Positions 2,878 to 13,532 of a stretch of DNA of 25,508 nt are shown here, one piece after another (the first letter of the stretch is position 1; every line of letters begins with the position of its first letter). The notes beneath the pieces are model-generated. The model did no database searches and was not told the DNA's origin. It saw only the letters and a program-made list of their open reading frames with translations. The position numbers were made by a program, and so were the translations under genes. The DNA comes from Nitrospirota bacterium (GTDB lineage Bacteria > Nitrospirota > UBA9217), in NCBI GenBank assembly GCA_036391375.1, contig DASWAB010000161.1, forward strand, positions 1 through 25,508, written 5' to 3'.

Positions 2878-5460
2878 TCACGGCCCGTGCGCATCTTTTC
2901 CCGCCTCGGCAAGCTCGTAGTTTCCATCGAGAAACGACCGCGCGTACCGCTCGACTGCGCTGTCGTCGTTCAGCACCGCGTCAAGCTGGCGCGTGTAGGA
3001 AAACAGCCTGCCCAGTTGATCGAGAACAGCCTCCGCATCACGCTGTTCGATGTTTGCGAGCCGGGCGACGATCAAGTCCCCTTTTGTCTTGATGTTGAAC
3101 CCGTACTCGCCCAGGATCATTGCAAGGAGCTGCAAGCGGCGCGAGCGCTTGGTCATGTCCGTCGCGCCGCCCGCAAACCGGAAATAGATGTGGTTGTTCT
3201 TCGCCCGTTCGCCGCAAAAACAGTCCATTACGATGAAGTGATAGCCGAATTTGAGGCTTATGTTCGCGTAGTCCCGCGAGATGACCGCCAGGTTCCGTTC
3301 CACGCGGCCTCCCGAGTCCGTCGTGATATCGGGCACGCGGAGCATGCTGGTCATGAAATCATTCACCCGGAGCGGGACCGCATCGGAGCGCCACAGCCCG
3401 GGCCGCGTCATGCCGTTTATCACGGCCCGAAACGGAATGGACTCGATCTGTTCGGCGGCGACTTCCGGCGCGTTGTCCGGGTTCCGCAAGCCGCCCCCGA
3501 TGTCGATCAGCATGAGGTCCGCCGGAACGGACAGGTTCAGCCTGACCGCGCCGGTGCTGCTGCCCCGGCCTGCGCCGTCGACCAGCTCCGCAACGGACTT
3601 CTCGTGGATAAAGCGAAGGACATCGTGCATGGTTCTGCAGGCCTTCGGGGTAAATTCGTCCTTGAGCGGGTCCACGAGGTTGAGCGGCACGATATACCGC
3701 AGGAGGTACCGCTTTTTCCGGAACTCAGCAATCGCCTCCATCCGCGTGGAGTCGTCCTGGGAGTCCTCGACGATCTCGGCAATCCGTCCCTCATAAATTG
3801 TCGCGCCTTCGGCATCCACCCGGACCGTGACCTCCTGACCAGCGGTAAGGGCGCGCGCCGCGTGACCAGCGTTCACCACGGTCGGGATCCTGAACTCGCG
3901 GCAGAGGGCTGCCATGTGGCTTGTGGGGGTCCCCGTGTCCGTGATGATCGCGGACACGTCGGTCATCAGCCGCACAAACTGAGACGAGTCGCGGCGAGCG
4001 ACCAGAACGGCCCCTTTCGGGACGGAAGAGAGGTCGCGATCGTTCGCGAGTATGAACACCCTGCCCGAGGCCGCGCCTTTCTGAACCACGACGCCGATGT
4101 TTCGCGCAAGCGCCTTTGCGTCGGCCGCGGCAACGGATGCCTGCGTTTTCCCCTCGGGGATCCTCAGGGGCCGCGATTGCAGGATGAAAATCTTTCCATT
4201 CGCGTCGATGGCCCACTCGATGTCCTGGGGTTTCCGGAAATGACTTTCGAGCGAGACCGCGATTCGGGCGAGCTCGGCGGCCTGATTGCGCGAAATGCTC
4301 GGGGTGTTTCTCTTGTCTTCCGGGATCGGAACGGCTGCGACGCCTCCCTCCCCGCGCATGGCGACCATGCTCGTCTTAGCGCCTATACGGGATTCCACGA
4401 TATCGCGGGCGCCGTCCTTCCTTATTCGGAAAAAATCGGCGTCCACCGCGCCTTCAACGACCGCTGTGCCGAGTCCCCGCGTCGAATTTATGACGAGCGT
4501 GCCCTGGTCTTTCTCGGGATCCGTGGAGTAGACGACCCCGCTCGCCTCGGCGTCCACCATGACAACGCCTGCCACGGCCATTTTCATGTCCCGGACATCG
4601 AAGCCCAGGCGCTGCTGATAGGCGGCAGCCTTGTCCGAATAGAGGCTGGCAACCACCTTGCGATAGGCTTTTCCCACTTCCCCGGGATCGAGGGGCACGT
4701 TCAGAATGGTTTCGAACTGGCCGGCAAAGGAAAATTCGCTGTCTTCTTCGCCTGCGCTGCTCCGGACCGCGAGGCTGCAAGCTGCGCCGCAGCGGGACTG
4801 GACCTTCCTTACGGCCTTTTCGATCGCGCGGCTGAGTTCCGGCGGCATAGTCCCGGCGAGGACCTGTTCCCGCAGAGTTTGAAGCGCGTTTTCCGGCATC
4901 CCGGAGCCGGCCGGCGGAAGAAGAACTTTCTCGAAAATGCGGTTATGCCGCATGAACAGGTCGAAGGCGCCCGTCGTAATGGCAAAGGCATCCGGAACGC
5001 TGAGTTTGACGGCGTTTTTCACCTCGGCAAGGTTGCTGTTTTTCCCGCCCACGATCCGCGCCATGTCTCCCGTGATCCGGTCGTAGGCGATAACGAGCGC
5101 ATCAGGGACCGGGACGGTCTCGTCGATGACATGCCTGATCCGTTCGTCGAGCTCCCAAAAACGTTTGTCGAGTTCCGTATAGCGGCCGCTGGTCAGCCCA
5201 TCGAAGAGGCGAAGCGAAGTCCCGATGTTTTCCTTGAGCCGGGAGTATGCATTCCGCACGTACACGATGTCGAAGAGATACTCCCCGCCCAGCTTTTCGC
5301 CCATGTCCGTGATCGTTTCCAGGGCGCGGTTGTTGCTGTCGAGCACGTTCTGAAACGTGTCGAAGAAGGCCCTGAATTGAGCGGCGTCTCTCGGCGGCCG
5401 GTGAAGGAAAGCCCTTCTCAGCGACGACAGGGCGGATTGTATGAATTCCGGTTGCTTCAT
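2878..5460 (-). CDS. PEP synthase/PPDK-like dikinase (ATP-grasp + phospho-His swivel domain + uncharacterised C-terminal domain)
   Basis: ATP-grasp motifs GGKNSNLAE, AVRSSAGEED..SFAGQFET..NV, GVVYSTDP and PQDIEWA..ILQSRP; mobile domain TDTGTPTSHMAALCREFRIP (His codon at 3916-3918). No recognisable PEP/pyruvate-binding TIM barrel follows it. Confidence 0.85.
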   Translation of the reverse strand: MKQPEFIQSALSSLRRAFLHRPPRDAAQFRAFFDTFQNVLDSNNRALETITDMGEKLGGEYLFDIVYVRNAYSRLKENIGTSLRLFDGLTSGRYTELDKRFWELDERIRHVIDETVPVPDALVIAYDRITGDMARIVGGKNSNLAEVKNAVKLSVPDAFAITTGAFDLFMRHNRIFEKVLLPPAGSGMPENALQTLREQVLAGTMPPELSRAIEKAVRKVQSRCGAACSLAVRSSAGEEDSEFSFAGQFETILNVPLDPGEVGKAYRKVVASLYSDKAAAYQQRLGFDVRDMKMAVAGVVMVDAEASGVVYSTDPEKDQGTLVINSTRGLGTAVVEGAVDADFFRIRKDGARDIVESRIGAKTSMVAMRGEGGVAAVPIPEDKRNTPSISRNQAAELARIAVSLESHFRKPQDIEWAIDANGKIFILQSRPLRIPEGKTQASVAAADAKALARNIGVVVQKGAASGRVFILANDRDLSSVPKGAVLVARRDSSQFVRLMTDVSAIITDTGTPTSHMAALCREFRIPTVVNAGHAARALTAGQEVTVRVDAEGATIYEGRIAEIVEDSQDDSTRMEAIAEFRKKRYLLRYIVPLNLVDPLKDEFTPKACRTMHDVLRFIHEKSVAELVDGAGRGSSTGAVRLNLSVPADLMLIDIGGGLRNPDNAPEVAAEQIESIPFRAVINGMTRPGLWRSDAVPLRVNDFMTSMLRVPDITTDSGGRVERNLAVISRDYANISLKFGYHFIVMDCFCGERAKNNHIYFRFAGGATDMTKRSRRLQLLAMILGEYGFNIKTKGDLIVARLANIEQRDAEAVLDQLGRLFSYTRQLDAVLNDDSAVERYARSFLDGNYELAEAGKDAHGP

Positions 5461-5500: not shown

Positions 5501-5878
5501 TCACGCCGCGCTCGTTTTCGCCAATGCCCGCCGGATCGACTCCTTCAGTTCTTTGATCTTGACGGGCTTGGGGAAAAAGTCGTGCACGTCGCCGCGCAGC
5601 GCCTCGATGGCGGCGTCGAGGTTCGCAAACGCCGTAATCATGATGACCGTGGTCCCGGGATATTGTTTTTTTACGGTCCGGAGAACTTCCATGCCGTCGA
5701 TCCCCTTCATTTTGTAATCAGTCACGACGACGTGGAATTTTTCCTCCTTCAGCCTCGCCAGCGCGGGCTCCGCGTTCAGGAAAGTCTCGACCAGATACCC
5801 GTCCTGCTCGAGCGACAGTTTCGCCATGTCGCCGACGATCTTCTCGTCGTCAATGACCATGATCCGGTAATTACTCAT
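5501..5878 (-). CDS. Single-domain response regulator (receiver only)
   Basis: 125 aa with IMVIDDE, VVVTDYKM (acceptor Asp), ITAFA and KPVK; overlaps the kinase stop codon by 8 nt. Confidence 0.92.
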   Translation of the reverse strand: MSNYRIMVIDDEKIVGDMAKLSLEQDGYLVETFLNAEPALARLKEEKFHVVVTDYKMKGIDGMEVLRTVKKQYPGTTVIMITAFANLDAAIEALRGDVHDFFPKPVKIKELKESIRRALAKTSAA

Positions 5879-7286
5879 TGTTTATCTCCTTGTTTTTATA
5901 ATGGGCGGGGATTTCTACGGTAAAGGTTGTCCCTACGCCCACCTTGCTTTCGACCCGAATCTCCCCCCTGTGATTTTTTATGATGCCGTAGCTCACCGAC
6001 AGCCCGAGCCCCGTTCCTCCCTCTCCCTTGGTGCTGAAAAAGGGATCGAAGATGTGCGGGAGAAACTCGGGCGGTATGCCCCTGCCGGTGTCCATGACCG
6101 TGATCTCGACGGAATCGCCGCCTTTCCCCGGCCTCGACGCGATAAAAAGCCTGCCTCCGTTAGGCATGGCCTGAACGGCGTTGGTAACAAGGTTCACGAG
6201 CACCTGCTGGATCTGGTGGGCGTCAACAAAAACATGAGGAAGACCGTCCGTAAGGTTTACCATCGTGTCGATATTCGACACATCGATCATGTTTTGGACC
6301 AGGGTGAGCGTCTTGTGGATAACGCTGTTGATGTCCTCTTCCTTCGGATTGGCGTCCTTGGGCTTGGAGAAATCCAGAAGGTTCTTCACGATCTGGCGGA
6401 TCCGCTCCGTCTCCGCGTCGACTTTGCCCATGAATTCAATACGGTCTTTTTCGCCGAGTTTGTCGTACAGCTCCGCGTACGTCTGCGCGATCATGGAGAT
6501 GTTGTTCAGCGGGTTCGTGATCTCATGCGCGACGCCGGCGGTCAGGATGCCGAGGGAGGCGAGCTTTTTGGACTGGAGGATCTGCTCTTCGCGGTGCGCC
6601 AGCTCCTCGGACATGGAGTTGATCGCCGTGATGACCGACCCCAGTTCGTCCCGCGGGCGGACGCCGTCGAGGGGATGGAAGTTCCCTTCCGATATGGACT
6701 TCGTCATCTTCTCGATTTCCCGGAGCGACTGAACGATTTTCTGCGAAATAAAATGGCCGATCAGGAGAGCGGACGCGAGGATCGCCCAGAAGGAAAAGAT
6801 CAGGATGCGCTTGGAGCTCATGATGATGTCATTTACGCGCTTTCGCTCGAGTTGGGTGATGGAATCAGAGTATTCACTGAGTTTCCTTCCCGCGGCACGG
6901 ATCTTCGACTCCAGTTCCTGGAACGGATGGCCCGTGGCCTCAGTCTCCCCAATGGCGTCCGAATAGGCCTTCAGGTTTGATTCGAGCTTCTGGAGGTCTG
7001 CCTCTCCGATTGCCGGGATGATGTCCTTTTTCGCGGCATCGAGCGACTTCATCGTGCCCGAAATCTTCTCCCGGATCTCGTTGAGCGCTTTTTTGTCATG
7101 GTAGAGGAAAAAGTTCTTCTCCGAAAGCCTCATTTCGAGGAACGACGCGTTGAGATCATCGGCGATTTCCACGAACCGGAGTTTGGTCAGCACCAGGTTC
7201 ATGTTTTGAAAGGCAAAGAAACCGATCAGGATCAGAAACGCCCCGTTGATAACGTTCGAGAGGACAAGTTTATGCTCGATTTTCAT
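5871..7286 (-). CDS. Sensor histidine kinase 1 (TM, helical extracytoplasmic sensor, TM, HAMP, HisKA, HATPase)
   Basis: Two TM segments, EMRLSEKNFFLY, HAMP (DELG..INSM), H-box GVAHEITNPL, N-box NLVTNA, G1 DTGRGI, F-box PFFSTK, G2 GTGLGLS. Confidence 0.93.
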   Translation of the reverse strand: MKIEHKLVLSNVINGAFLILIGFFAFQNMNLVLTKLRFVEIADDLNASFLEMRLSEKNFFLYHDKKALNEIREKISGTMKSLDAAKKDIIPAIGEADLQKLESNLKAYSDAIGETEATGHPFQELESKIRAAGRKLSEYSDSITQLERKRVNDIIMSSKRILIFSFWAILASALLIGHFISQKIVQSLREIEKMTKSISEGNFHPLDGVRPRDELGSVITAINSMSEELAHREEQILQSKKLASLGILTAGVAHEITNPLNNISMIAQTYAELYDKLGEKDRIEFMGKVDAETERIRQIVKNLLDFSKPKDANPKEEDINSVIHKTLTLVQNMIDVSNIDTMVNLTDGLPHVFVDAHQIQQVLVNLVTNAVQAMPNGGRLFIASRPGKGGDSVEITVMDTGRGIPPEFLPHIFDPFFSTKGEGGTGLGLSVSYGIIKNHRGEIRVESKVGVGTTFTVEIPAHYKNKEINNE

Positions 7287-7491: not shown

Positions 7492-8733
7492 TTACTCGGG
7501 GTAGGCTATGCCTCTCGGGACTTCCGCCTGTTCCTTCCGCACTGGCCAGTACCAGAGAACGCCGTCGACCGTCATCAACAGCCCCGCGGCGATAAGCCAG
7601 AGATTGAACGACGTCAGAAGACCGAAACCGAAATAGCTGATGATGCCGATGCCGATGCTGAGAAACGAGAAACCGGTGCGGATGAACGCCAAGCCGGTCC
7701 TCGCCCGCGCATAGATGGTGCGATAGCACGCCGCGATGGTCCGCTGGGCGGCCAGCACATTCCGCTCGCGCGCGAACATGGTGCGCGTTTTGGAGGAAGG
7801 AGACGGATTGAGGTATGTGCTGAAATCGGAAAGAAAATCCCCCATCCTCGCCAGCATGGTGCCTTTCAGCGATTGCATGACGGGCGCGTTCTCGACAAAA
7901 TGATAATTTTCGAGGAACTGGATCGTCGCCCCCGTCACTTCCACGATCGTCTGGTTCCCCGGCGGCGTCATTCTCGACTTTCGCACGTTCAGGTAGATCG
8001 GAAGGCCGTAGAAGGAGATCGCGATGCCGGCCGCGAGGACCGAGAAATAAAGAAGCGGATGATACGCGATGTTCTTGGATTTAAGCAGCGCGTTCGACAG
8101 CGCGATCGTCCCCAGCCCCCAGCGCAGAAAAGCGAGGCCGGTCCGCGCCTTTGCCATGTCCGTGCGGTAGCAGGCCATGCGCGTGCGCCACTGGGCCATG
8201 ATGTTTCGCCAGAATGCCAGGCCCGTCCGTTCGGTGCCGATCAAAAGCCCCACCTTCGCGTGGAGGAAGTCCTGGATGTACCACTGGATGTCCGCGTCGA
8301 GCGAGACCCTGAATTCGTACCGCTCCGCCGTGATGTGCTTTTTTACGTCATCCCGCATCGCCTGGTTCTGCGGATTCCTTGCTGCGATGACGACGGCGCC
8401 CGATTTGTCCTTCATGACGGGCATCCACTGGTACGTCGACAGCGAGTCCGGGCTGAGGCCCGCCAGGAGCTCCGGCGGGATCGGCAGGCGTTCGTCGTAC
8501 TCGATCGAGGGGCAGGCATAATATTTTGCAAGCGCCGCAAGCAGATCCTGCTTGGGCACCTTGTACTCTTTCAGCAGGACCTGCTCGAGCGCGACTCCTC
8601 GCGCCTGCGCCCTGCTCGACGCTTCTTCCAGGTCGCCGCGGCTCAGGATGCCCCGATCCGCCAGAAGGGAGAATTCCTGACCAGCCGGCGCGGCCGTTTC
8701 CTCGAGCTCGCCGTTTAAAAGTTCATTTTGCAT
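7492..8733 (-). CDS. MshEN/T2SSE_N-like domain fused to two DUF202-like membrane repeats (protein B, 413 aa)
   Basis: The N-terminus resembles the GspE/PilB N-domain (LLADRGILSRGDLEEA..LEQVLLKEYKVPKQDLLAALAKYY..WMPV..VVIAARNP). Two repeats of (R-T-x-[LMF]-A-x-x)n..RTGLAF each lead into two hydrophobic helices. ATG 8733 overlaps the stop of protein A and is preferred to the ORF-track start 8778. Confidence 0.8.
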   Translation of the reverse strand: MQNELLNGELEETAAPAGQEFSLLADRGILSRGDLEEASSRAQARGVALEQVLLKEYKVPKQDLLAALAKYYACPSIEYDERLPIPPELLAGLSPDSLSTYQWMPVMKDKSGAVVIAARNPQNQAMRDDVKKHITAERYEFRVSLDADIQWYIQDFLHAKVGLLIGTERTGLAFWRNIMAQWRTRMACYRTDMAKARTGLAFLRWGLGTIALSNALLKSKNIAYHPLLYFSVLAAGIAISFYGLPIYLNVRKSRMTPPGNQTIVEVTGATIQFLENYHFVENAPVMQSLKGTMLARMGDFLSDFSTYLNPSPSSKTRTMFARERNVLAAQRTIAACYRTIYARARTGLAFIRTGFSFLSIGIGIISYFGFGLLTSFNLWLIAAGLLMTVDGVLWYWPVRKEQAEVPRGIAYPE

Positions 8734-10375
8734 ATTGATCAAAAACAACCTTTCCCCATTCTGAGTTGGGCCTTCCATAATCGGGGATCGTTATCTCCAT
8801 GTCCCCGTAGCAGTACGGGTATTCTTTCCGCATGCGTTCGGCGGGAACCGTCCAGCGGTATCCGTCCGCGATCAGCACAAGTCCTCCCACGATCATGACC
8901 GCGTTAAAGACCGTCCAGCCGGGCGAAGCGACGCCGAAATACGCCATCAGCCCCGCGCCGACCGACGTAATGCTCATGCCTGTTCTGATGTACGCCATGC
9001 CCGTGCGGGAAACTGCCATGACCGTCCGGAGCCTCGCCATGACGCCGCGCCGGTCGGCAAGCACCGTCCGTTCGAGAGCGTGGCCCGTCGTGGCCCAGAT
9101 GCCGGGCTTTTGGGCCGCGGTAACAGGCGGCCCAGGCCTGTCCCTTCCCGGTCCGGAGCGTTTGTGCCCGAGTGGAAATACGAGGTCCCAGATAGTTTCC
9201 TTGTTGAGCGCATCAAGCACGGAGCGCCGCCCTTCGATTCCGGACCTGCGCCCGCCGAAATACCAGTAAAAGCCCTCGGCGGACATGAGAATGCCCGCCC
9301 CAATCAGCGCCACATCGAAGACCGACCACGCCGTCCATGCGCTGGCTTCGAACTGTCGCATCAACCCTATCCCGAGCCCTGCAAAGGCGATTCCGGTGCG
9401 CGTAAAGGCGAGACCGGTCCGCGCACGGGCAAGCCTTGTCCGATGCCCGGCCAGCGAGGTCCGCTCCTCCGCCATGTCCGTCCGGTCGCTGGCCAGGAAC
9501 CTCCGCCGCATGACCGGCGACAGGTTCTCCCATCCGGCCCGGAGCTCGGCAGCGCCCTGTACCTCTTCGGTCCTGCTGATGACGGGCCGTCCGTTCCTCA
9601 CGTCAGCATTGAGCACGCAGGTGCCCCATGTCGGCTTCGTGCTGGACGAATCGACCGGTTTCGCGGCGATCTTTCGCGCGGGCAGATACCATTTGATCCC
9701 ATCATAAACCATGATGATGCCGGCCACGAAGAGCGGCGCTTCCAGGAAGAGATAAAAACCGGAGCCCACCACGCGCAGGAACAGCAGCGAGATGACGATG
9801 AAGGAGACGCCGGTCCGGATGAAAGCGAGTCCGGTCCTTCCCTTGGCGAACAGCGTCCGGTAATGGGCATAGGTGGACCTGCGGTAGGCTAAAAACGTCC
9901 TGACGCGCGCGAGCGGCGTCCTCCCGCCGCAGCCGGCGAAGCGGGGGTTCACGTCGAAATTGTGTTCGATGATGCGGATGATGTCATGAGGAAGCGCGAC
10001 GCGGAAATCAACATGGTCCACGTCAAGCGTCTTTCTGATGTCCTCCGCGACGCGGGGGTTGTCAGGCCGGTAGGCGATGACCTCGGCGCGCTTTTCCCTG
10101 ACCGAGAGCGGGAACCAGAGGGCCTGTTTAAGCTTCTCCAGGTCGAGACGCAGCACAAGATAATATGAAGCGATCACGCTTTCCTCATACTCCACGAAGG
10201 GGAGCCCGTAATATTCCGACAGGGAGAAAAGGACCTCGTGTTTCGGCACCCCGCGTTCGATCAGGATATCTTCAATCGCAACGCCGGAAGCGGTTGCCTC
10301 CAGCGCGCATTTTTCGAGCTCGCTCCGGGAAAGCAGCCCTCGTCTTATAAGTCTTTCAAATTTGTTCATATCCAT
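8723..10375 (-). CDS. MshEN/T2SSE_N-like domain fused to three DUF202-like membrane repeats (protein A, 550 aa)
   Basis: N-terminus KFERLIRRGLLSRSEL..IEDILIERGVPKHEVLFSLSEYYGLPFVEY..WFPL..VIAYRPDN; three Arg-heptad/RTG[LM]A[FY]xRTG repeats, each followed by two TM-like helices. The start could be 10375 or 10369. Confidence 0.8.
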   Translation of the reverse strand: MDMNKFERLIRRGLLSRSELEKCALEATASGVAIEDILIERGVPKHEVLFSLSEYYGLPFVEYEESVIASYYLVLRLDLEKLKQALWFPLSVREKRAEVIAYRPDNPRVAEDIRKTLDVDHVDFRVALPHDIIRIIEHNFDVNPRFAGCGGRTPLARVRTFLAYRRSTYAHYRTLFAKGRTGLAFIRTGVSFIVISLLFLRVVGSGFYLFLEAPLFVAGIIMVYDGIKWYLPARKIAAKPVDSSSTKPTWGTCVLNADVRNGRPVISRTEEVQGAAELRAGWENLSPVMRRRFLASDRTDMAEERTSLAGHRTRLARARTGLAFTRTGIAFAGLGIGLMRQFEASAWTAWSVFDVALIGAGILMSAEGFYWYFGGRRSGIEGRRSVLDALNKETIWDLVFPLGHKRSGPGRDRPGPPVTAAQKPGIWATTGHALERTVLADRRGVMARLRTVMAVSRTGMAYIRTGMSITSVGAGLMAYFGVASPGWTVFNAVMIVGGLVLIADGYRWTVPAERMRKEYPYCYGDMEITIPDYGRPNSEWGKVVFDQYAK

Positions 10376-10452
10376 ACGCTTTTACGTCCACCGGAAAAAA
10401 GAAAGAGGAAAGGCGCTGTGGAAAGAATTGTGCCGGCGTGCCGGGGGAAAGA

Positions 10453-10474
10453 GGGAGACGCAGTTGCGTCTCCC
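10453..10474 (-). terminator. Strong hairpin after the USP genes (partial terminator or processing stem)
   Basis: GGGAGACGC-AGTT-GCGTCTCCC just downstream of the USP stop; only a weak U-tract (CUCUUU) on the minus strand. Confidence 0.4.
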
Positions 10475-10484
10475 CGCAACGCAG

Positions 10485-10907
10485 TTACACTCCGACGATG
10501 TATACCGGGCAGGGCGCGCGGTCGATAACTTTTTCCACGACATGATCGCCGAACAGCCTGCTCCAGATGTCTTTTTTCTTTTTCGATCCCATGATGATAA
10601 GATCGCACTTTTCCTCTTCCGCCACTTCAACAATTTTTTGCGACACATCGCCTTCTTCAAGCCTCGTCTTGATCAGCGCGCCCTCGACGGCCGCCATTTT
10701 GCGCGCCTCGGAAACGGCCTTGTCCCCCCCGTCGTCCAGCACATCGTCCAGGTTCTTGATGCCCGTCAGGTTCAGGTCTCCCTCCCAGGGCTGGACGACT
10801 TTCACCACGGTAATCCAGGTTTTCTCGTCTTGGGCGAGCCTGATGCCCTGTTCAAGGACTTTCTTGCGCCCGTTCAGGGCAATGAGGACTTTTCGATACC
10901 CCTTCAT
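10485..10907 (-). CDS. Universal stress protein, single domain, lacking the ATP-binding motif
   Basis: MKGYRKVLIAL..DLIIMGS..VVEKVIDRAPCPVYIV. The real start ATG 10907 has a GAGGTG SD; the 406-aa ORF-track entry includes a spurious N-terminal extension. Confidence 0.88.
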   Translation of the reverse strand: MKGYRKVLIALNGRKKVLEQGIRLAQDEKTWITVVKVVQPWEGDLNLTGIKNLDDVLDDGGDKAVSEARKMAAVEGALIKTRLEEGDVSQKIVEVAEEEKCDLIIMGSKKKKDIWSRLFGDHVVEKVIDRAPCPVYIVGV

Positions 10908-10912
10908 GATTT

Positions 10913-11776
10913 TCACCTCGCAATCAATACGGGACAGGAGGCCTGGGCGATGATCCTCTCCGCCGTGCTCCCCAGAATGGCCTTGTTCACGCCGCGCCAC
11001 CCGTGCGTCCCCATGACAATGAGATCGTTTTTCAGTTTCGCGGATATATCCAGAATCTTCTCGTCCGCCCTTCCCTCCTGGACCACCGCCTTGATCTGCG
11101 CCCCGAGCCCCGCTGCCAGTTTTTTGGCGTCTTCGACGATTTTTTCCGCCGCCTGGTAGAGGGACTTCGTGATGGACTCGGTCTTGATGAAATCCATCAT
11201 TTCCTCGTACCGGGGGATCACGTAGAGGACCGAAATCTCGGCGCCATCGGCCCTCGACAGGGCGCAGGCCCGTGACAGGGCCTTCTTGCTCGAGTCGGAC
11301 CCGTCGAAGGGAACCAGAAGGGACGCATAGCTGCCGGCGCACGAGGTGCAGGGTTTTTTCACGATCAGAACATCGCAGGGCGATTTCAGGATCACCTGCG
11401 AAGTCACGCTGCCCATGAGCAGCCGCTTGAGCCCCCGCCTGCCGTATGTCCCCAGGGCGATGAGTTCGGCCTTCGTTTCCCGCGCGGTGTCCACGATGAC
11501 TTCCGGCGGCTCCCCCTCGCAGACAAGCGACTCGACGCTGCCGTCCAAGCCGAAGTCGGACAGGAGCGCGCTCTTCGCCTGACGGCACATTCCCGCGCCA
11601 AGCTCCAGCCTCGTCTCCATCTGCGAGGGCAGGATGGCGAATTCCTCCTTGTCGAAATACACTGCATGGACGAGCGAAATCCTGCCGCCGTGCTTCTTTA
11701 TCCAATGGGCGGCCTCCGAAAGGGCGGCCTTGCTGAATGCCGATTCATCAAAACCGACGACGATGGAGTTATACAT
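10913..11776 (-). CDS. Universal stress protein, tandem domain
   Basis: Two USP folds, both with G-x2-G-x9-GS (GTYGRRGLKRLLMGS and GTHGWRGVNKAILGS); TAATG overlap with the upstream gene. Confidence 0.92.
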   Translation of the reverse strand: MYNSIVVGFDESAFSKAALSEAAHWIKKHGGRISLVHAVYFDKEEFAILPSQMETRLELGAGMCRQAKSALLSDFGLDGSVESLVCEGEPPEVIVDTARETKAELIALGTYGRRGLKRLLMGSVTSQVILKSPCDVLIVKKPCTSCAGSYASLLVPFDGSDSSKKALSRACALSRADGAEISVLYVIPRYEEMMDFIKTESITKSLYQAAEKIVEDAKKLAAGLGAQIKAVVQEGRADEKILDISAKLKNDLIVMGTHGWRGVNKAILGSTAERIIAQASCPVLIAR

Positions 11777-12609
11777 TAATGAGCGCCTCCGCCTTTTCTG
11801 AATACCAGGCCCACGCCGAACCCGGCGCCCAAAGCCATGCCGATCGAAAGCAGCCCGTAGAATGCGGCGTTGTTTTTGGCCATGGTCGCCAGCGACTTGA
11901 CGATGCCGACCTGTTCCACGTTCACTTTTGTTTCCGCCTGTTCCATGACCTTGTTGTCTTTTACCGCGTAGACCGTCACGAGGTAATCGCCCGGCGCGGC
12001 CTGGTAGGGCCAGTCGGTCAGGATATAATATTCCTGACGTCCGTTCGGCAGCGACGTGGTCGTGATCTTTCCGGCCAAGGAAGCGTACACCTTCGAGTCT
12101 TCCTTATACCTGATAAACTCATTGAACCATTTTATCTTTTCTTCCCCGCTTGCGGCGGGGCTGATCTCCACGTGCTTTGCGAGCGCCGGGTATCCGAGCA
12201 GGTATTTTTCACGCTCGTCCTGCGCCAGGATATCGTCGATCTTCTTCGTGCTGAACACCTCGTAGAAGTTCGGCGTGTTTTCAAATTTGAGCTGCCCGAC
12301 GTTCATCCAGAGCATGCCGCCGACCTTTCCCTTCTGCTTCATCACCTGGTGCCCTTCGGGAGAGGTGATCTTGATGATCAGGTCTACGCCCGAGTCCGCC
12401 TCGCCCTTTACGCTCACCGAGCCTCCATGGTAAAAAAAGCCGATGGTAATGTGATCATGGTTCGCCTTGGCCGTGAGCATGGCCGATGCCGGTTTGGCGC
12501 TGACGAGCTGGAACAGGGAAAACAAGAGCATGAGCGCCAGTGCCCCTAAGACCCTTGCATTGCCGAAGAGCCTGGCGTAGTAAGCCAACGAGTGAATGTG
12601 AATATGCAT
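11776..12609 (-). CDS. TIGR02186-like (Alph_Pro_TM) membrane-anchored partner of the TSUP transporter
   Basis: N-terminal signal/TM, soluble region (ITIGFFYHG..V.V.G..GKVGGMLWMN..APGDY.V.VYA), C-terminal TM. Coupled to the TSUP gene by a TAATG overlap; position is typical for this family. Confidence 0.75.
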   Translation of the reverse strand: MHIHIHSLAYYARLFGNARVLGALALMLLFSLFQLVSAKPASAMLTAKANHDHITIGFFYHGGSVSVKGEADSGVDLIIKITSPEGHQVMKQKGKVGGMLWMNVGQLKFENTPNFYEVFSTKKIDDILAQDEREKYLLGYPALAKHVEISPAASGEEKIKWFNEFIRYKEDSKVYASLAGKITTTSLPNGRQEYYILTDWPYQAAPGDYLVTVYAVKDNKVMEQAETKVNVEQVGIVKSLATMAKNNAAFYGLLSIGMALGAGFGVGLVFRKGGGAH

Positions 12610-13532
12610 TAGTGTCCTCCTGCCTGTGAGATGAGTAATGATGGAGTCAACGTCAGTTCGAAGACGATCTTTATGGTCACAACGAGCACGATGCACGCCA
12701 GAAGGATCTTGAGCTGGTCGGCCTTGAGTTTCCTGCCGAATACCGCGCCGATCTGCGCGCCGATGGTGGAGCCCAGGAGCAGCAGGACCGCAAGGATGAA
12801 GTCCACGCTGTGGTTCGTGTAGGCCTGCAGGAACGTGACCTCGATGCAGGTGAAAAGGATCTGGAACAGGCTCGTGCCCACGACGACGTGCATCGGCATC
12901 CGGAGCATGTAGACCATGATCGGCACCATCAAAAACCCGCCTCCCACGCCCATGATCGCGGCAAGCACGCCGACGAACCCGCCGAGCACGATCGGCACCA
13001 GGATGGAATGGGTGATGCCGGACTTTTCAAAATGGGTCTGAAGCGGGAGCGATTTCAGGAACCTGCCGACGGCCGACTCCTTTTCTTCCTTCGGCGCCGC
13101 GACCGCATCCTTTTTCTTCTTCATGCTCTGGAGGCTTTCGATGAACATGTAAACGCCCACGATGCCGAGCATGAGCACATAAGTCATCTTGATCACGAAG
13201 TCCGCGTTGCCCATGGCATGGAGCAGCTTGATGGCCTGAACGCCCACGAGGCCTCCCAGGAACCCGCCGACAAGCAGATAGATGCCCATCTTGAAGTCCA
13301 CGTTGCCGACCTTCCAGTGCGCATAGGTCCCGGAGGTTGACGCCGCCACGATCTGGTTCGAATCCGTCGCCGCCGCAACGGTCGAAGGGATGCCGAACAT
13401 GATAAGAAGCGGGGTCATGAGAAAACCGCCGCCCACGCCGAAGAGGCCGGAAAGCAGCCCAACGGCGAGCCCGAGCCCTACCGGGATCAGGATGTTGATA
13501 CTCGTCAATGCTACAGGTAGATACAGATACAT
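12609..13532 (-). CDS. TSUP (TauE/SafE family) transporter 1; substrate unknown
   Basis: Highly hydrophobic with the two pseudo-repeat motifs GLFGVGGGFLMTP and AAIMGVGGGFLMVP, plus VVVGTSLFQ; AAGGAG SD. Confidence 0.92.
   Translation of the reverse strand: MYLYLPVALTSINILIPVGLGLAVGLLSGLFGVGGGFLMTPLLIMFGIPSTVAAATDSNQIVAASTSGTYAHWKVGNVDFKMGIYLLVGGFLGGLVGVQAIKLLHAMGNADFVIKMTYVLMLGIVGVYMFIESLQSMKKKKDAVAAPKEEKESAVGRFLKSLPLQTHFEKSGITHSILVPIVLGGFVGVLAAIMGVGGGFLMVPIMVYMLRMPMHVVVGTSLFQILFTCIEVTFLQAYTNHSVDFILAVLLLLGSTIGAQIGAVFGRKLKADQLKILLACIVLVVTIKIVFELTLTPSLLISQAGGH

Follow-up and report, generated by a model that had tools for sequence, protein, structure and literature searches.

Genes A and B, a co-inherited pair of paralogues with five arginine-ladder DUF202 hairpins in Nitrospirota and Desulfobulbales

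Two overlapping genes with five ladder hairpins

Genes A and B lie in a 25,508-nucleotide stretch of DNA (the window, contig DASWAB010000161.1 of GenBank assembly GCA_036391375.1) from a Nitrospirota bacterium of the UBA9217 lineage, and all features described here are on its minus strand. The two genes are co-inherited, translationally coupled paralogues that together encode five non-equivalent ladder hairpins of the Pfam family DUF202 and two degenerate GSPII docking domains. Gene A (8723-10375) codes for a 550-aa protein with a GSPII/MshEN-like N-domain followed by three arginine-ladder hairpins; gene B (7492-8778) codes for a 428-aa protein with a GSPII/MshEN-like domain and two ladder hairpins. 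The start of B overlaps the end of A, by 56 nt if translation begins at the ATG at 8778 and by 11 nt if it begins at the alternative ATG at 8733; the position of the start is uncertain because residues 1-32 of the long form are disordered in the AlphaFold2 (AF2) model.

Pfam recognizes both domains over their cut-offs in both proteins. MshEN (PF05157) matches residues 56-141 of A (E 2.2e-9) and 96-173 of B (E 2.4e-11), and DUF202 (PF02656, curated cut-off 23.4 bits) matches A in three stretches (E 1.6e-17, 64.1 bits) and B in two, the latter just over the cut-off at 24.6 bits. Taken singly, three of the units exceed the cut-off (33.1, 29.9 and 26.6 bits) and two fall just under it (22.8 and 21.0 bits). 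A six-frame search of the whole host genome (2.48 Mb, 91% complete) returned five DUF202 matches, all in A and B and none elsewhere. A sequence-only reading of the window had proposed this arrangement of two overlapping open reading frames, each with an MshEN-like domain and either three or two DUF202-like repeats, and the Pfam searches bear it out; the units it had delimited, at residues 152-232, 291-374 and 429-511 of A and 184-264 and 332-412 of B, agree with those described here within a few residues.

Every unit opens with a ladder of strict heptads, R-T-x-L-A-x-x, in which each arginine forms a rung; there are six rungs in A1, A2, B1 and B2 and five in A3, giving 29 arginines. Unit A1 (9665-9922) has its ladder at R152, 159, 166, 173, 180 and 187, with helices at residues 152-203 and 209-237 (the ladder with membrane helix TM1, and membrane helix TM2); in A2 (9248-9505) the rungs are R291, 298, 305, 312, 319 and 326 and the corresponding helices span 287-341 and 349-390; and in A3 (8822-9091) they are R436, 443, 450, 457 and 464, with helices at 424-480 and 485-518. 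Unit B1 (7978-8232) is the most divergent, with a ladder from R184 to R219 and RWG in place of RTG, and B2 (7522-7797) is the slowest-evolving, its rungs at R332, 339, 346, 353, 360 and 367 all being invariant. The motif G-x5-[DE]-G-x2-W, which the earlier reading had counted in four units, is present in A1, A2, A3 and B2; B1 lacks it and reads FYGLPIY.

In the AF2 models (A: predicted local distance difference test, pLDDT, 80.1 and predicted template modelling score, pTM, 0.71; B: pLDDT 73 and pTM 0.50), each ladder and the hydrophobic segment that follows it (TM1) form a single continuous helix of 51-57 residues, and the second helix has 27-42 residues. The models of A and B contain no third helix in any unit, and hydropathy likewise gives two membrane segments per unit, which upholds the proposal that all repeats can share one orientation. 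With two membrane helices per unit the hairpin ends lie on the same side, and the N-terminal soluble domain and both ends of every hairpin are cytoplasmic. The part of each ladder outside the membrane comprises about 35 residues, or about 50 Å, and the units are joined by conserved linkers of 51-60 residues that are long enough to reach from the membrane back to the top of the next ladder.

Conservation of the ladders is extreme. Across the aligned sequences (68 of A and 59 of B, drawn from two phyla), 26 of the 29 arginines are invariant and the other three are conserved at 90% or more. Taking all ladder heptads together, position 1 is arginine in 100%, position 2 threonine in 77% (asparagine in 11%), position 4 leucine or methionine in 83% and position 5 alanine in 95%, and positions 3, 6 and 7 are variable. 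The conserved positions i, i+1, i+3 and i+4 correspond to a d/e/g/a pattern; among designed coiled coils such four-position a/d/e/g-type patterns go with barrels of at least five helices, and not with two- to four-helix coiled coils.

The five repeat positions are non-equivalent and old, each evolving under its own constraints, with B1 the most divergent and B2 the most conserved. When 40 units from eight loci are placed in a maximum-likelihood tree, A1, A2, A3 and B1 form clades with 97-100% support, B1 on a long branch, and the B2 units make up a basal grade with short branches that is compatible with one origin. The clades span phyla, and the five positions were therefore fixed before the family spread across the two phyla.

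The N-domain of A (9953-10375; residues 1-141) and that of B (8260-8673; residues ~36-173) both have a GSPII/MshEN fold. The closest Foldseek matches of the former are PilF GSPII-B (8pdk), MshE (5htl) and XpsE-N (2d28), with target TM-scores (TMt) of 0.62-0.69, and those of the latter are PilB-N (7lko) and MshE (5htl); for the two domains overall TMt is 0.6-0.69. They resemble the MshEN/GSPII (T2SSE_N) domains of MshE, PilF, PilB and GspE/XpsE in fold, in scoring over the Pfam cut-off and, for A, in the 29-residue hairpin spacing. They differ from these in that no ATPase domain follows, both cyclic di-GMP (c-di-GMP) half-motifs are degenerate, and the domain is fused to a membrane domain.

Recurrence and genomic context

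The architecture of A and B is not a product of chance, and it is found again at 80 genome loci and in over 1000 proteins of the databases. The latter match A, and those with names are labelled only as 'DUF202/YidH' or hypothetical. The family is a small one, a library of 1.84 billion representatives yielding 42 of its proteins at E<=1e-30, among which the full-length A-type clusters all have three units and the B-type clusters all have two. Three apparent single-unit proteins (P0195, P0201 and P0218) match the second half of B almost exactly; they are probably fragments produced by gene calling, and we do not count them as true single-unit proteins. The sequence-only reading knew of no description of this architecture, and our literature search likewise gave no paper with both DUF202 and MshEN.

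Other DUF202 proteins are organized differently. P0192, P0199, P0208, P0224, P0261 and P0188 form a separate group in which Pfam sees DUF202 only, at up to 47.7 bits. They share the R-T-x-L-A-x-x heptad and the two-helix hairpin with A and B; unlike A and B, they carry a single hairpin in each chain, with as many as about 20 consecutive (E/Q)-R-T-x-L-A-x-x heptads ahead of it (the helix would be ~200 Å long), have no GSPII domain and lie outside the A-B locus. In P0188 a C-terminal receiver domain stands behind the ladder and its one hairpin. E. coli YidH, presumably a single unit with three membrane helices, is of the same Pfam family and its function is likewise unknown, but it lacks the long ladder, the GSPII domain and a fixed gene partner. 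It turned up in a screen for D-alanine export, and a transport assay did not confirm this.

The 80 loci come from Nitrospirota (Thermodesulfovibrionales, Ca. Sulfobium and Dissulfurispiraceae) and Desulfobulbales (Ca. Electronema, Desulfurivibrionaceae and Hydrosulfovibrio), and were scanned in six frames with a repeat model built from the window. Three repeats are present in 80 of 81 A homologues and two in 77 of 79 B homologues, counts in which related genomes are not independent samples and absences from metagenome-assembled genomes (MAGs) are provisional. An adjacent 3+2 pair is found at 70 of the 80 loci. Five have a 3+3+2 arrangement with a tandemly duplicated A and one B (L042, L043, L048 and L057, and L046 with a frameshift), which suggests alternative long subunits and recalls the alternative Vtc2 and Vtc3 subunits of the yeast vacuolar transporter chaperone (VTC). 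Among the remaining loci, three are ended by contig ends, L014 has a frameshifted B, and L073 (11532-14150) has a B truncated within the repeat-2 ladder and joined in frame to the sensor kinase, giving an 873-aa open reading frame; the fusion may be genuine or, the genome being a MAG, may reflect an artefact of assembly or deletion. At none of the 80 loci does B occur without A, or A without B where there is space for it, or any other combination, and only in L046 do A and B share one reading frame, with 15 stops between them. The expectation that homologous loci would always total five thus holds for the 70 loci with a 3+2 pair and fails for the five with 3+3+2.

Within the host class we examined 54 genomes (completeness at least 85%, many 96-100%). 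The A+B pair is present in 30 of these, representing 11 of 18 genera, and is therefore accessory and patchily distributed; A and B are adjacent in every carrier.

The order of genes in the window is TauE, Alph_Pro_TM/TIGR02186, a tandem universal stress protein (USP), a second USP, A, B, a HAMP histidine kinase, a regulator and a dikinase. Downstream of B are the sensor histidine kinase (5871-7286; HAMP, HisKA and HATPase_c), a receiver-only response regulator (5501-5878) that is 68-93% identical across both phyla, and a phosphoenolpyruvate (PEP)-synthase-like dikinase (2878-5460) composed of an ATP-grasp domain (PPDK_N), a phospho-His swivel domain and a conserved C-terminal domain of about 290 aa. 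Considering only loci with enough flanking sequence, the kinase and regulator follow B in 34 of 39 Nitrospirota-type and all 14 Desulfobulbales-type loci, and the dikinase is found downstream in 32 of 39 and 10 of 14, respectively. The conserved functional unit is A-B-kinase-regulator-dikinase.

The upstream neighbours (10485-13532) are less constant. They comprise the TauE permease (12609-13532), TIGR02186/Alph_Pro_TM (11776-12696), the tandem USP (10913-11776) and the single USP (10485-10910), and recur upstream of A in 23-25 of 39 Nitrospirota-type loci (TauE with Alph_Pro_TM in 25); at Desulfobulbales-type loci TauE is upstream in 2 of 19 and Alph_Pro_TM in 3 of 19. The gene for the TauE/SafE-family permease overlaps the start of that for Alph_Pro_TM (window 11776-13532), and this pair recurs a few kb away at some Desulfobulbales loci. 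A 109-nt gap separates the USP gene from A and contains, just past the USP stop codon, a hairpin (10440-10475) with a 10-bp GC-rich stem, GGGGAGACGC-AACU-GCGUCUCCC. Its T-tract is weak, for which reason a consensus terminator scan does not list it, and folding of the whole gap gives a statistically unremarkable z = -1.8; the hairpin may act in partial termination or mark a processing site. The lineage-specific neighbourhood weakens the proposal that A and B are co-transcribed with the anion transporter and the USPs.

Inheritance of the dikinase closely follows that of A and B. An orthologue (E<1e-120) is encoded by 27 of the 30 class genomes with A+B vs 1 of the 24 without; more distant paralogues occur in both sets, including dikinases of about 1060-1090 aa in genomes without A and B. 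Searched as a whole against the PDB, the dikinase matches PEP synthases over their ATP-grasp and swivel parts only, and its C-terminal domain has no relative in Pfam (E<=10) or, with a 29-sequence profile, in the PDB. This domain (2878-3750, 290 aa), presumed to bind the acceptor, has invariant His, Asp and Arg residues among a set that includes H42, D43, H49, E50, D83, H171, D176, H187, R191, R202 and R205 (domain numbering), and the motif NNHIYFRF-GGATD-TKRSRR. Some Desulfobulbales loci are more elaborate. In Hydrosulfovibrio ferrireducens (L068:347-17120) the order is dikinase, regulator, kinase, dikinase, dikinase, A, B, kinase, regulator, dikinase, so that one cluster holds four dikinase paralogues, 30-45% identical to that of the window, and two two-component pairs. 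The four-dikinase layout is seen at nine Desulfobulbales-type loci (including L058, L061, L063, L067, L069, L071 and L072).

A candidate anion conduit and its alternatives

We favor a reading, with a probability of about 0.4, in which A and B are obligate partners in one inner-membrane complex and form a pseudo-fivefold, arginine-lined anion conduit under sensor-kinase control. One A and one B would bring five ladder-TM1 helices into a pseudo-fivefold helical barrel with a lumen lined by ~29 arginines, reaching ~50 Å into the cytoplasm and continuing as a membrane pore like that of the five TM1 helices of VTC. The substrate bound or conducted by such a barrel would be an anion, perhaps a polymer or a phosphorylated compound. 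Soluble partners would attach to the N-domains, most likely the receiver-only regulator, the PEP-synthase-like dikinase or both, and this docking would place the conduit under the control of the adjacent sensor kinase. The five-helix barrel, its fivefold order and the orientation of the arginines toward the lumen are what we infer by analogy; the adjacency of A and B in all 30 positive class genomes and the prevalence of the 3+2 arrangement support the conduit. Further support comes from the conserved ladder arginines, the barrel-type heptad pattern, the age and non-equivalence of the repeat positions, DUF202 membership, the length of the linkers, and the conserved kinase, regulator and dikinase.

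Several observations weigh against this reading. Two of the five repeats are individually under the DUF202 cut-off, and the units have two membrane helices vs three in VTC subunits, TM3 being absent. The monomer AF2 models of A and B look like closed helical bundles, and their Foldseek matches, at low scores, are designed four- and six-helix bundles for B and ABC-exporter membrane domains for A. No VTC chain is among the top 50 Foldseek matches of either model, and a 40-sequence repeat profile searched against PDB sequences gives no VTC chain at E<=10. The 3+3+2 loci show that the locus total is not invariably five, and other stoichiometries, such as A2B2, are possible.

The main rival is a pure signalling scaffold, less likely in our judgment and yet a serious competitor, in which A and B would serve a kinase-regulator-dikinase phosphorelay as accessory subunits anchored in the membrane and nothing would be transported; as rigid coiled-coil stalks, the ladders would keep the GSPII docking domains off the membrane or relay a signal. 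The near-constant presence of the kinase and receiver-only regulator behind A and B is in keeping with this, as are the in-frame fusion of B to the kinase at L073, the coupling of ladder and hairpin to a receiver domain in the distant relative P0188, and the role of GSPII domains as known protein-docking modules, as in the PilB-N/PilZ complex (7lko). A stalk, however, leaves unexplained why one heptad position is 100% arginine over 29 rungs in two phyla, gives no reason for keeping exactly five non-equivalent hairpins, and does not account for the homology to a pore-forming module (Pfam DUF202).

The conduit reading leans on comparison with VTC, a 3:1:1 heteropentamer with three membrane helices per subunit, in which five TM1 helices line the pore and the cytoplasmic mouth has two basic rings seven residues apart, K24/R31 of Vtc1 and K622/R629 of Vtc4 (PMC9911596; bioRxiv 10.1101/2023.01.27.525886). 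Its TM3 contributes to the contact between subunits and bears the R83 'ionic lock' (bioRxiv 10.1101/2023.01.27.525886), and SPX-VTC-DUF202 is a recognized architecture (PMC12388464). This background, a heteropentamer with five basic TM1 pore helices, had been correctly invoked for the pair from its sequence. A and B share with the VTC channel (three Vtc1, Vtc3 or Vtc2, and Vtc4) the Pfam family of the membrane unit, a total of five units, basic residues at heptad spacing on the helix leading into TM1 (for A and B presumably facing the lumen) and non-equivalent positions around a ring that is presumed for A and B. They are unlike VTC in that the units are fused 3+2 into two chains, there are five to six arginine rungs vs two basic rings, neither A nor B nor any scanned neighbour has an SPX or TTM/VTC polymerase domain, and the host lineage is without known polyphosphate genes. 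The relation to VTC that had been put forward thus stands as far as the shared DUF202 profile; it finds no direct match in sequence or fold, including the suggested fold comparison. That A and B work like the VTC pore is a reasonable inference, and their being a VTC-type channel is not established.

A closer equivalence, in which the pair is a bacterial counterpart of VTC and translocates polyphosphate made by known kinases or by the dikinases as a new kind of polymerase, is in our view a long shot. It would account for the DUF202 module and the count of five, for the co-inheritance of an ATP-using phosphotransfer enzyme with an unassigned acceptor domain, for the up to four dikinase paralogues at Desulfobulbales loci, and for a Ppx/GppA homologue in 49 of the 54 host-class genomes. 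Against it, the same 54 genomes contain PPK1 in one and PPK2, the VTC polymerase (PF09359) and CHAD in none, the genome of the window has neither PPK1 nor PPK2, Ppx/GppA may use guanosine pentaphosphate (pppGpp) and not polyphosphate, and no direct similarity to VTC chains is found. Among five Desulfobulbales carriers, PPK1 and PPK2 are present in two Electronema genomes and both are absent from the Hydrosulfovibrio isolate and two MAGs, absences from MAGs being provisional. To our knowledge, no dikinase polymerizes phosphate.

The near-absence of these genes from the host class makes the A+B pair independent of the known polyphosphate machinery and weakens polyphosphate as its cargo. The host class either makes no polyphosphate or uses an unrecognized route; ordinary polyphosphate is an unlikely cargo of A and B in this lineage, and polyphosphate could serve only if it had a non-canonical source, such as the dikinases or a PPK3-type kinase. 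It is conceivable, if quite improbable, that A-B and the dikinases together use ATP to produce an anion, phosphorylated or polymeric, and pass it along the arginine-lined five-helix barrel. If true, such a machine would match VTC in function with other enzymes, in lineages that lack PPK1, PPK2, the VTC polymerase and CHAD, and would open a new route to polyphosphate or to a different exported polyanion.

The Pfam MshEN matches would by their name suggest a c-di-GMP-gated channel or receptor, and the nearest fold matches of the N-domains are to c-di-GMP-bound GSPII domains; we nonetheless reject this reading, which we consider very improbable, on comparison of the motifs. The A domain keeps the 29-residue spacing of two glycines and has x-K-F and x-P/L-E in place of the RLG triads; in B these are x-x-F and x-L-E and the second glycine is gone. 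The c-di-GMP motif, strict or relaxed (Wang et al. 2016), is matched by 0 of 68 A and 0 of 59 B sequences, and the NCBIfam model c-di-GMP_motif (NF053729) scores 12.3 and 18.8 bits on the two proteins against a cut-off of 38. In the A proteins of Desulfobulbales the first 35-40 residues are missing, and with them the region of the first half-motif. Judged by sequence, the N-domains are probably GSPII-fold docking domains and not c-di-GMP receptors; the 'regulatory caps' previously proposed are present as a fold and find no support in the c-di-GMP sense, none of 127 family members matching even the relaxed motif.

A pentameric stator-like complex of the ExbB/MotA/ZorA kind, with five long-helix subunits around a partner, is hardly credible: the five helical units would fit and Foldseek weakly matches B to ExbB (9ddo_A and 5sv0_B, probability 0.20-0.25), but these matches are insignificant, Pfam reports DUF202 and not MotA_ExbB, and the conserved locus has no ExbD/MotB-like partner gene.

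Significance of the A-B pair

DUF202 is a widespread membrane module whose sole understood role is in the pore of the eukaryotic polyphosphate polymerase, and its bacterial members are without known function. In A and B a five-unit assembly is fixed genetically as 3+2. Its 29 in-register arginines are an extreme signature that is easy to mutate, and its partners are defined, namely the kinase, the receiver and the dikinase with its uncharacterized acceptor domain. The present analysis adds per-locus repeat counts, a repeat tree, the four-position heptad pattern, the co-occurrence of the dikinase orthologue and the near-absence of polyphosphate genes from the class. The pair makes testable the role of a bacterial DUF202 pore, the origin of pseudo-symmetric pores by repeat fusion, and the substrates of orphan dikinases. 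Its carriers are sulfur-cycling Nitrospirota and Desulfobulbales, including cable bacteria, and the cargo may matter for the cycling of sulfur or phosphorus in sediments.

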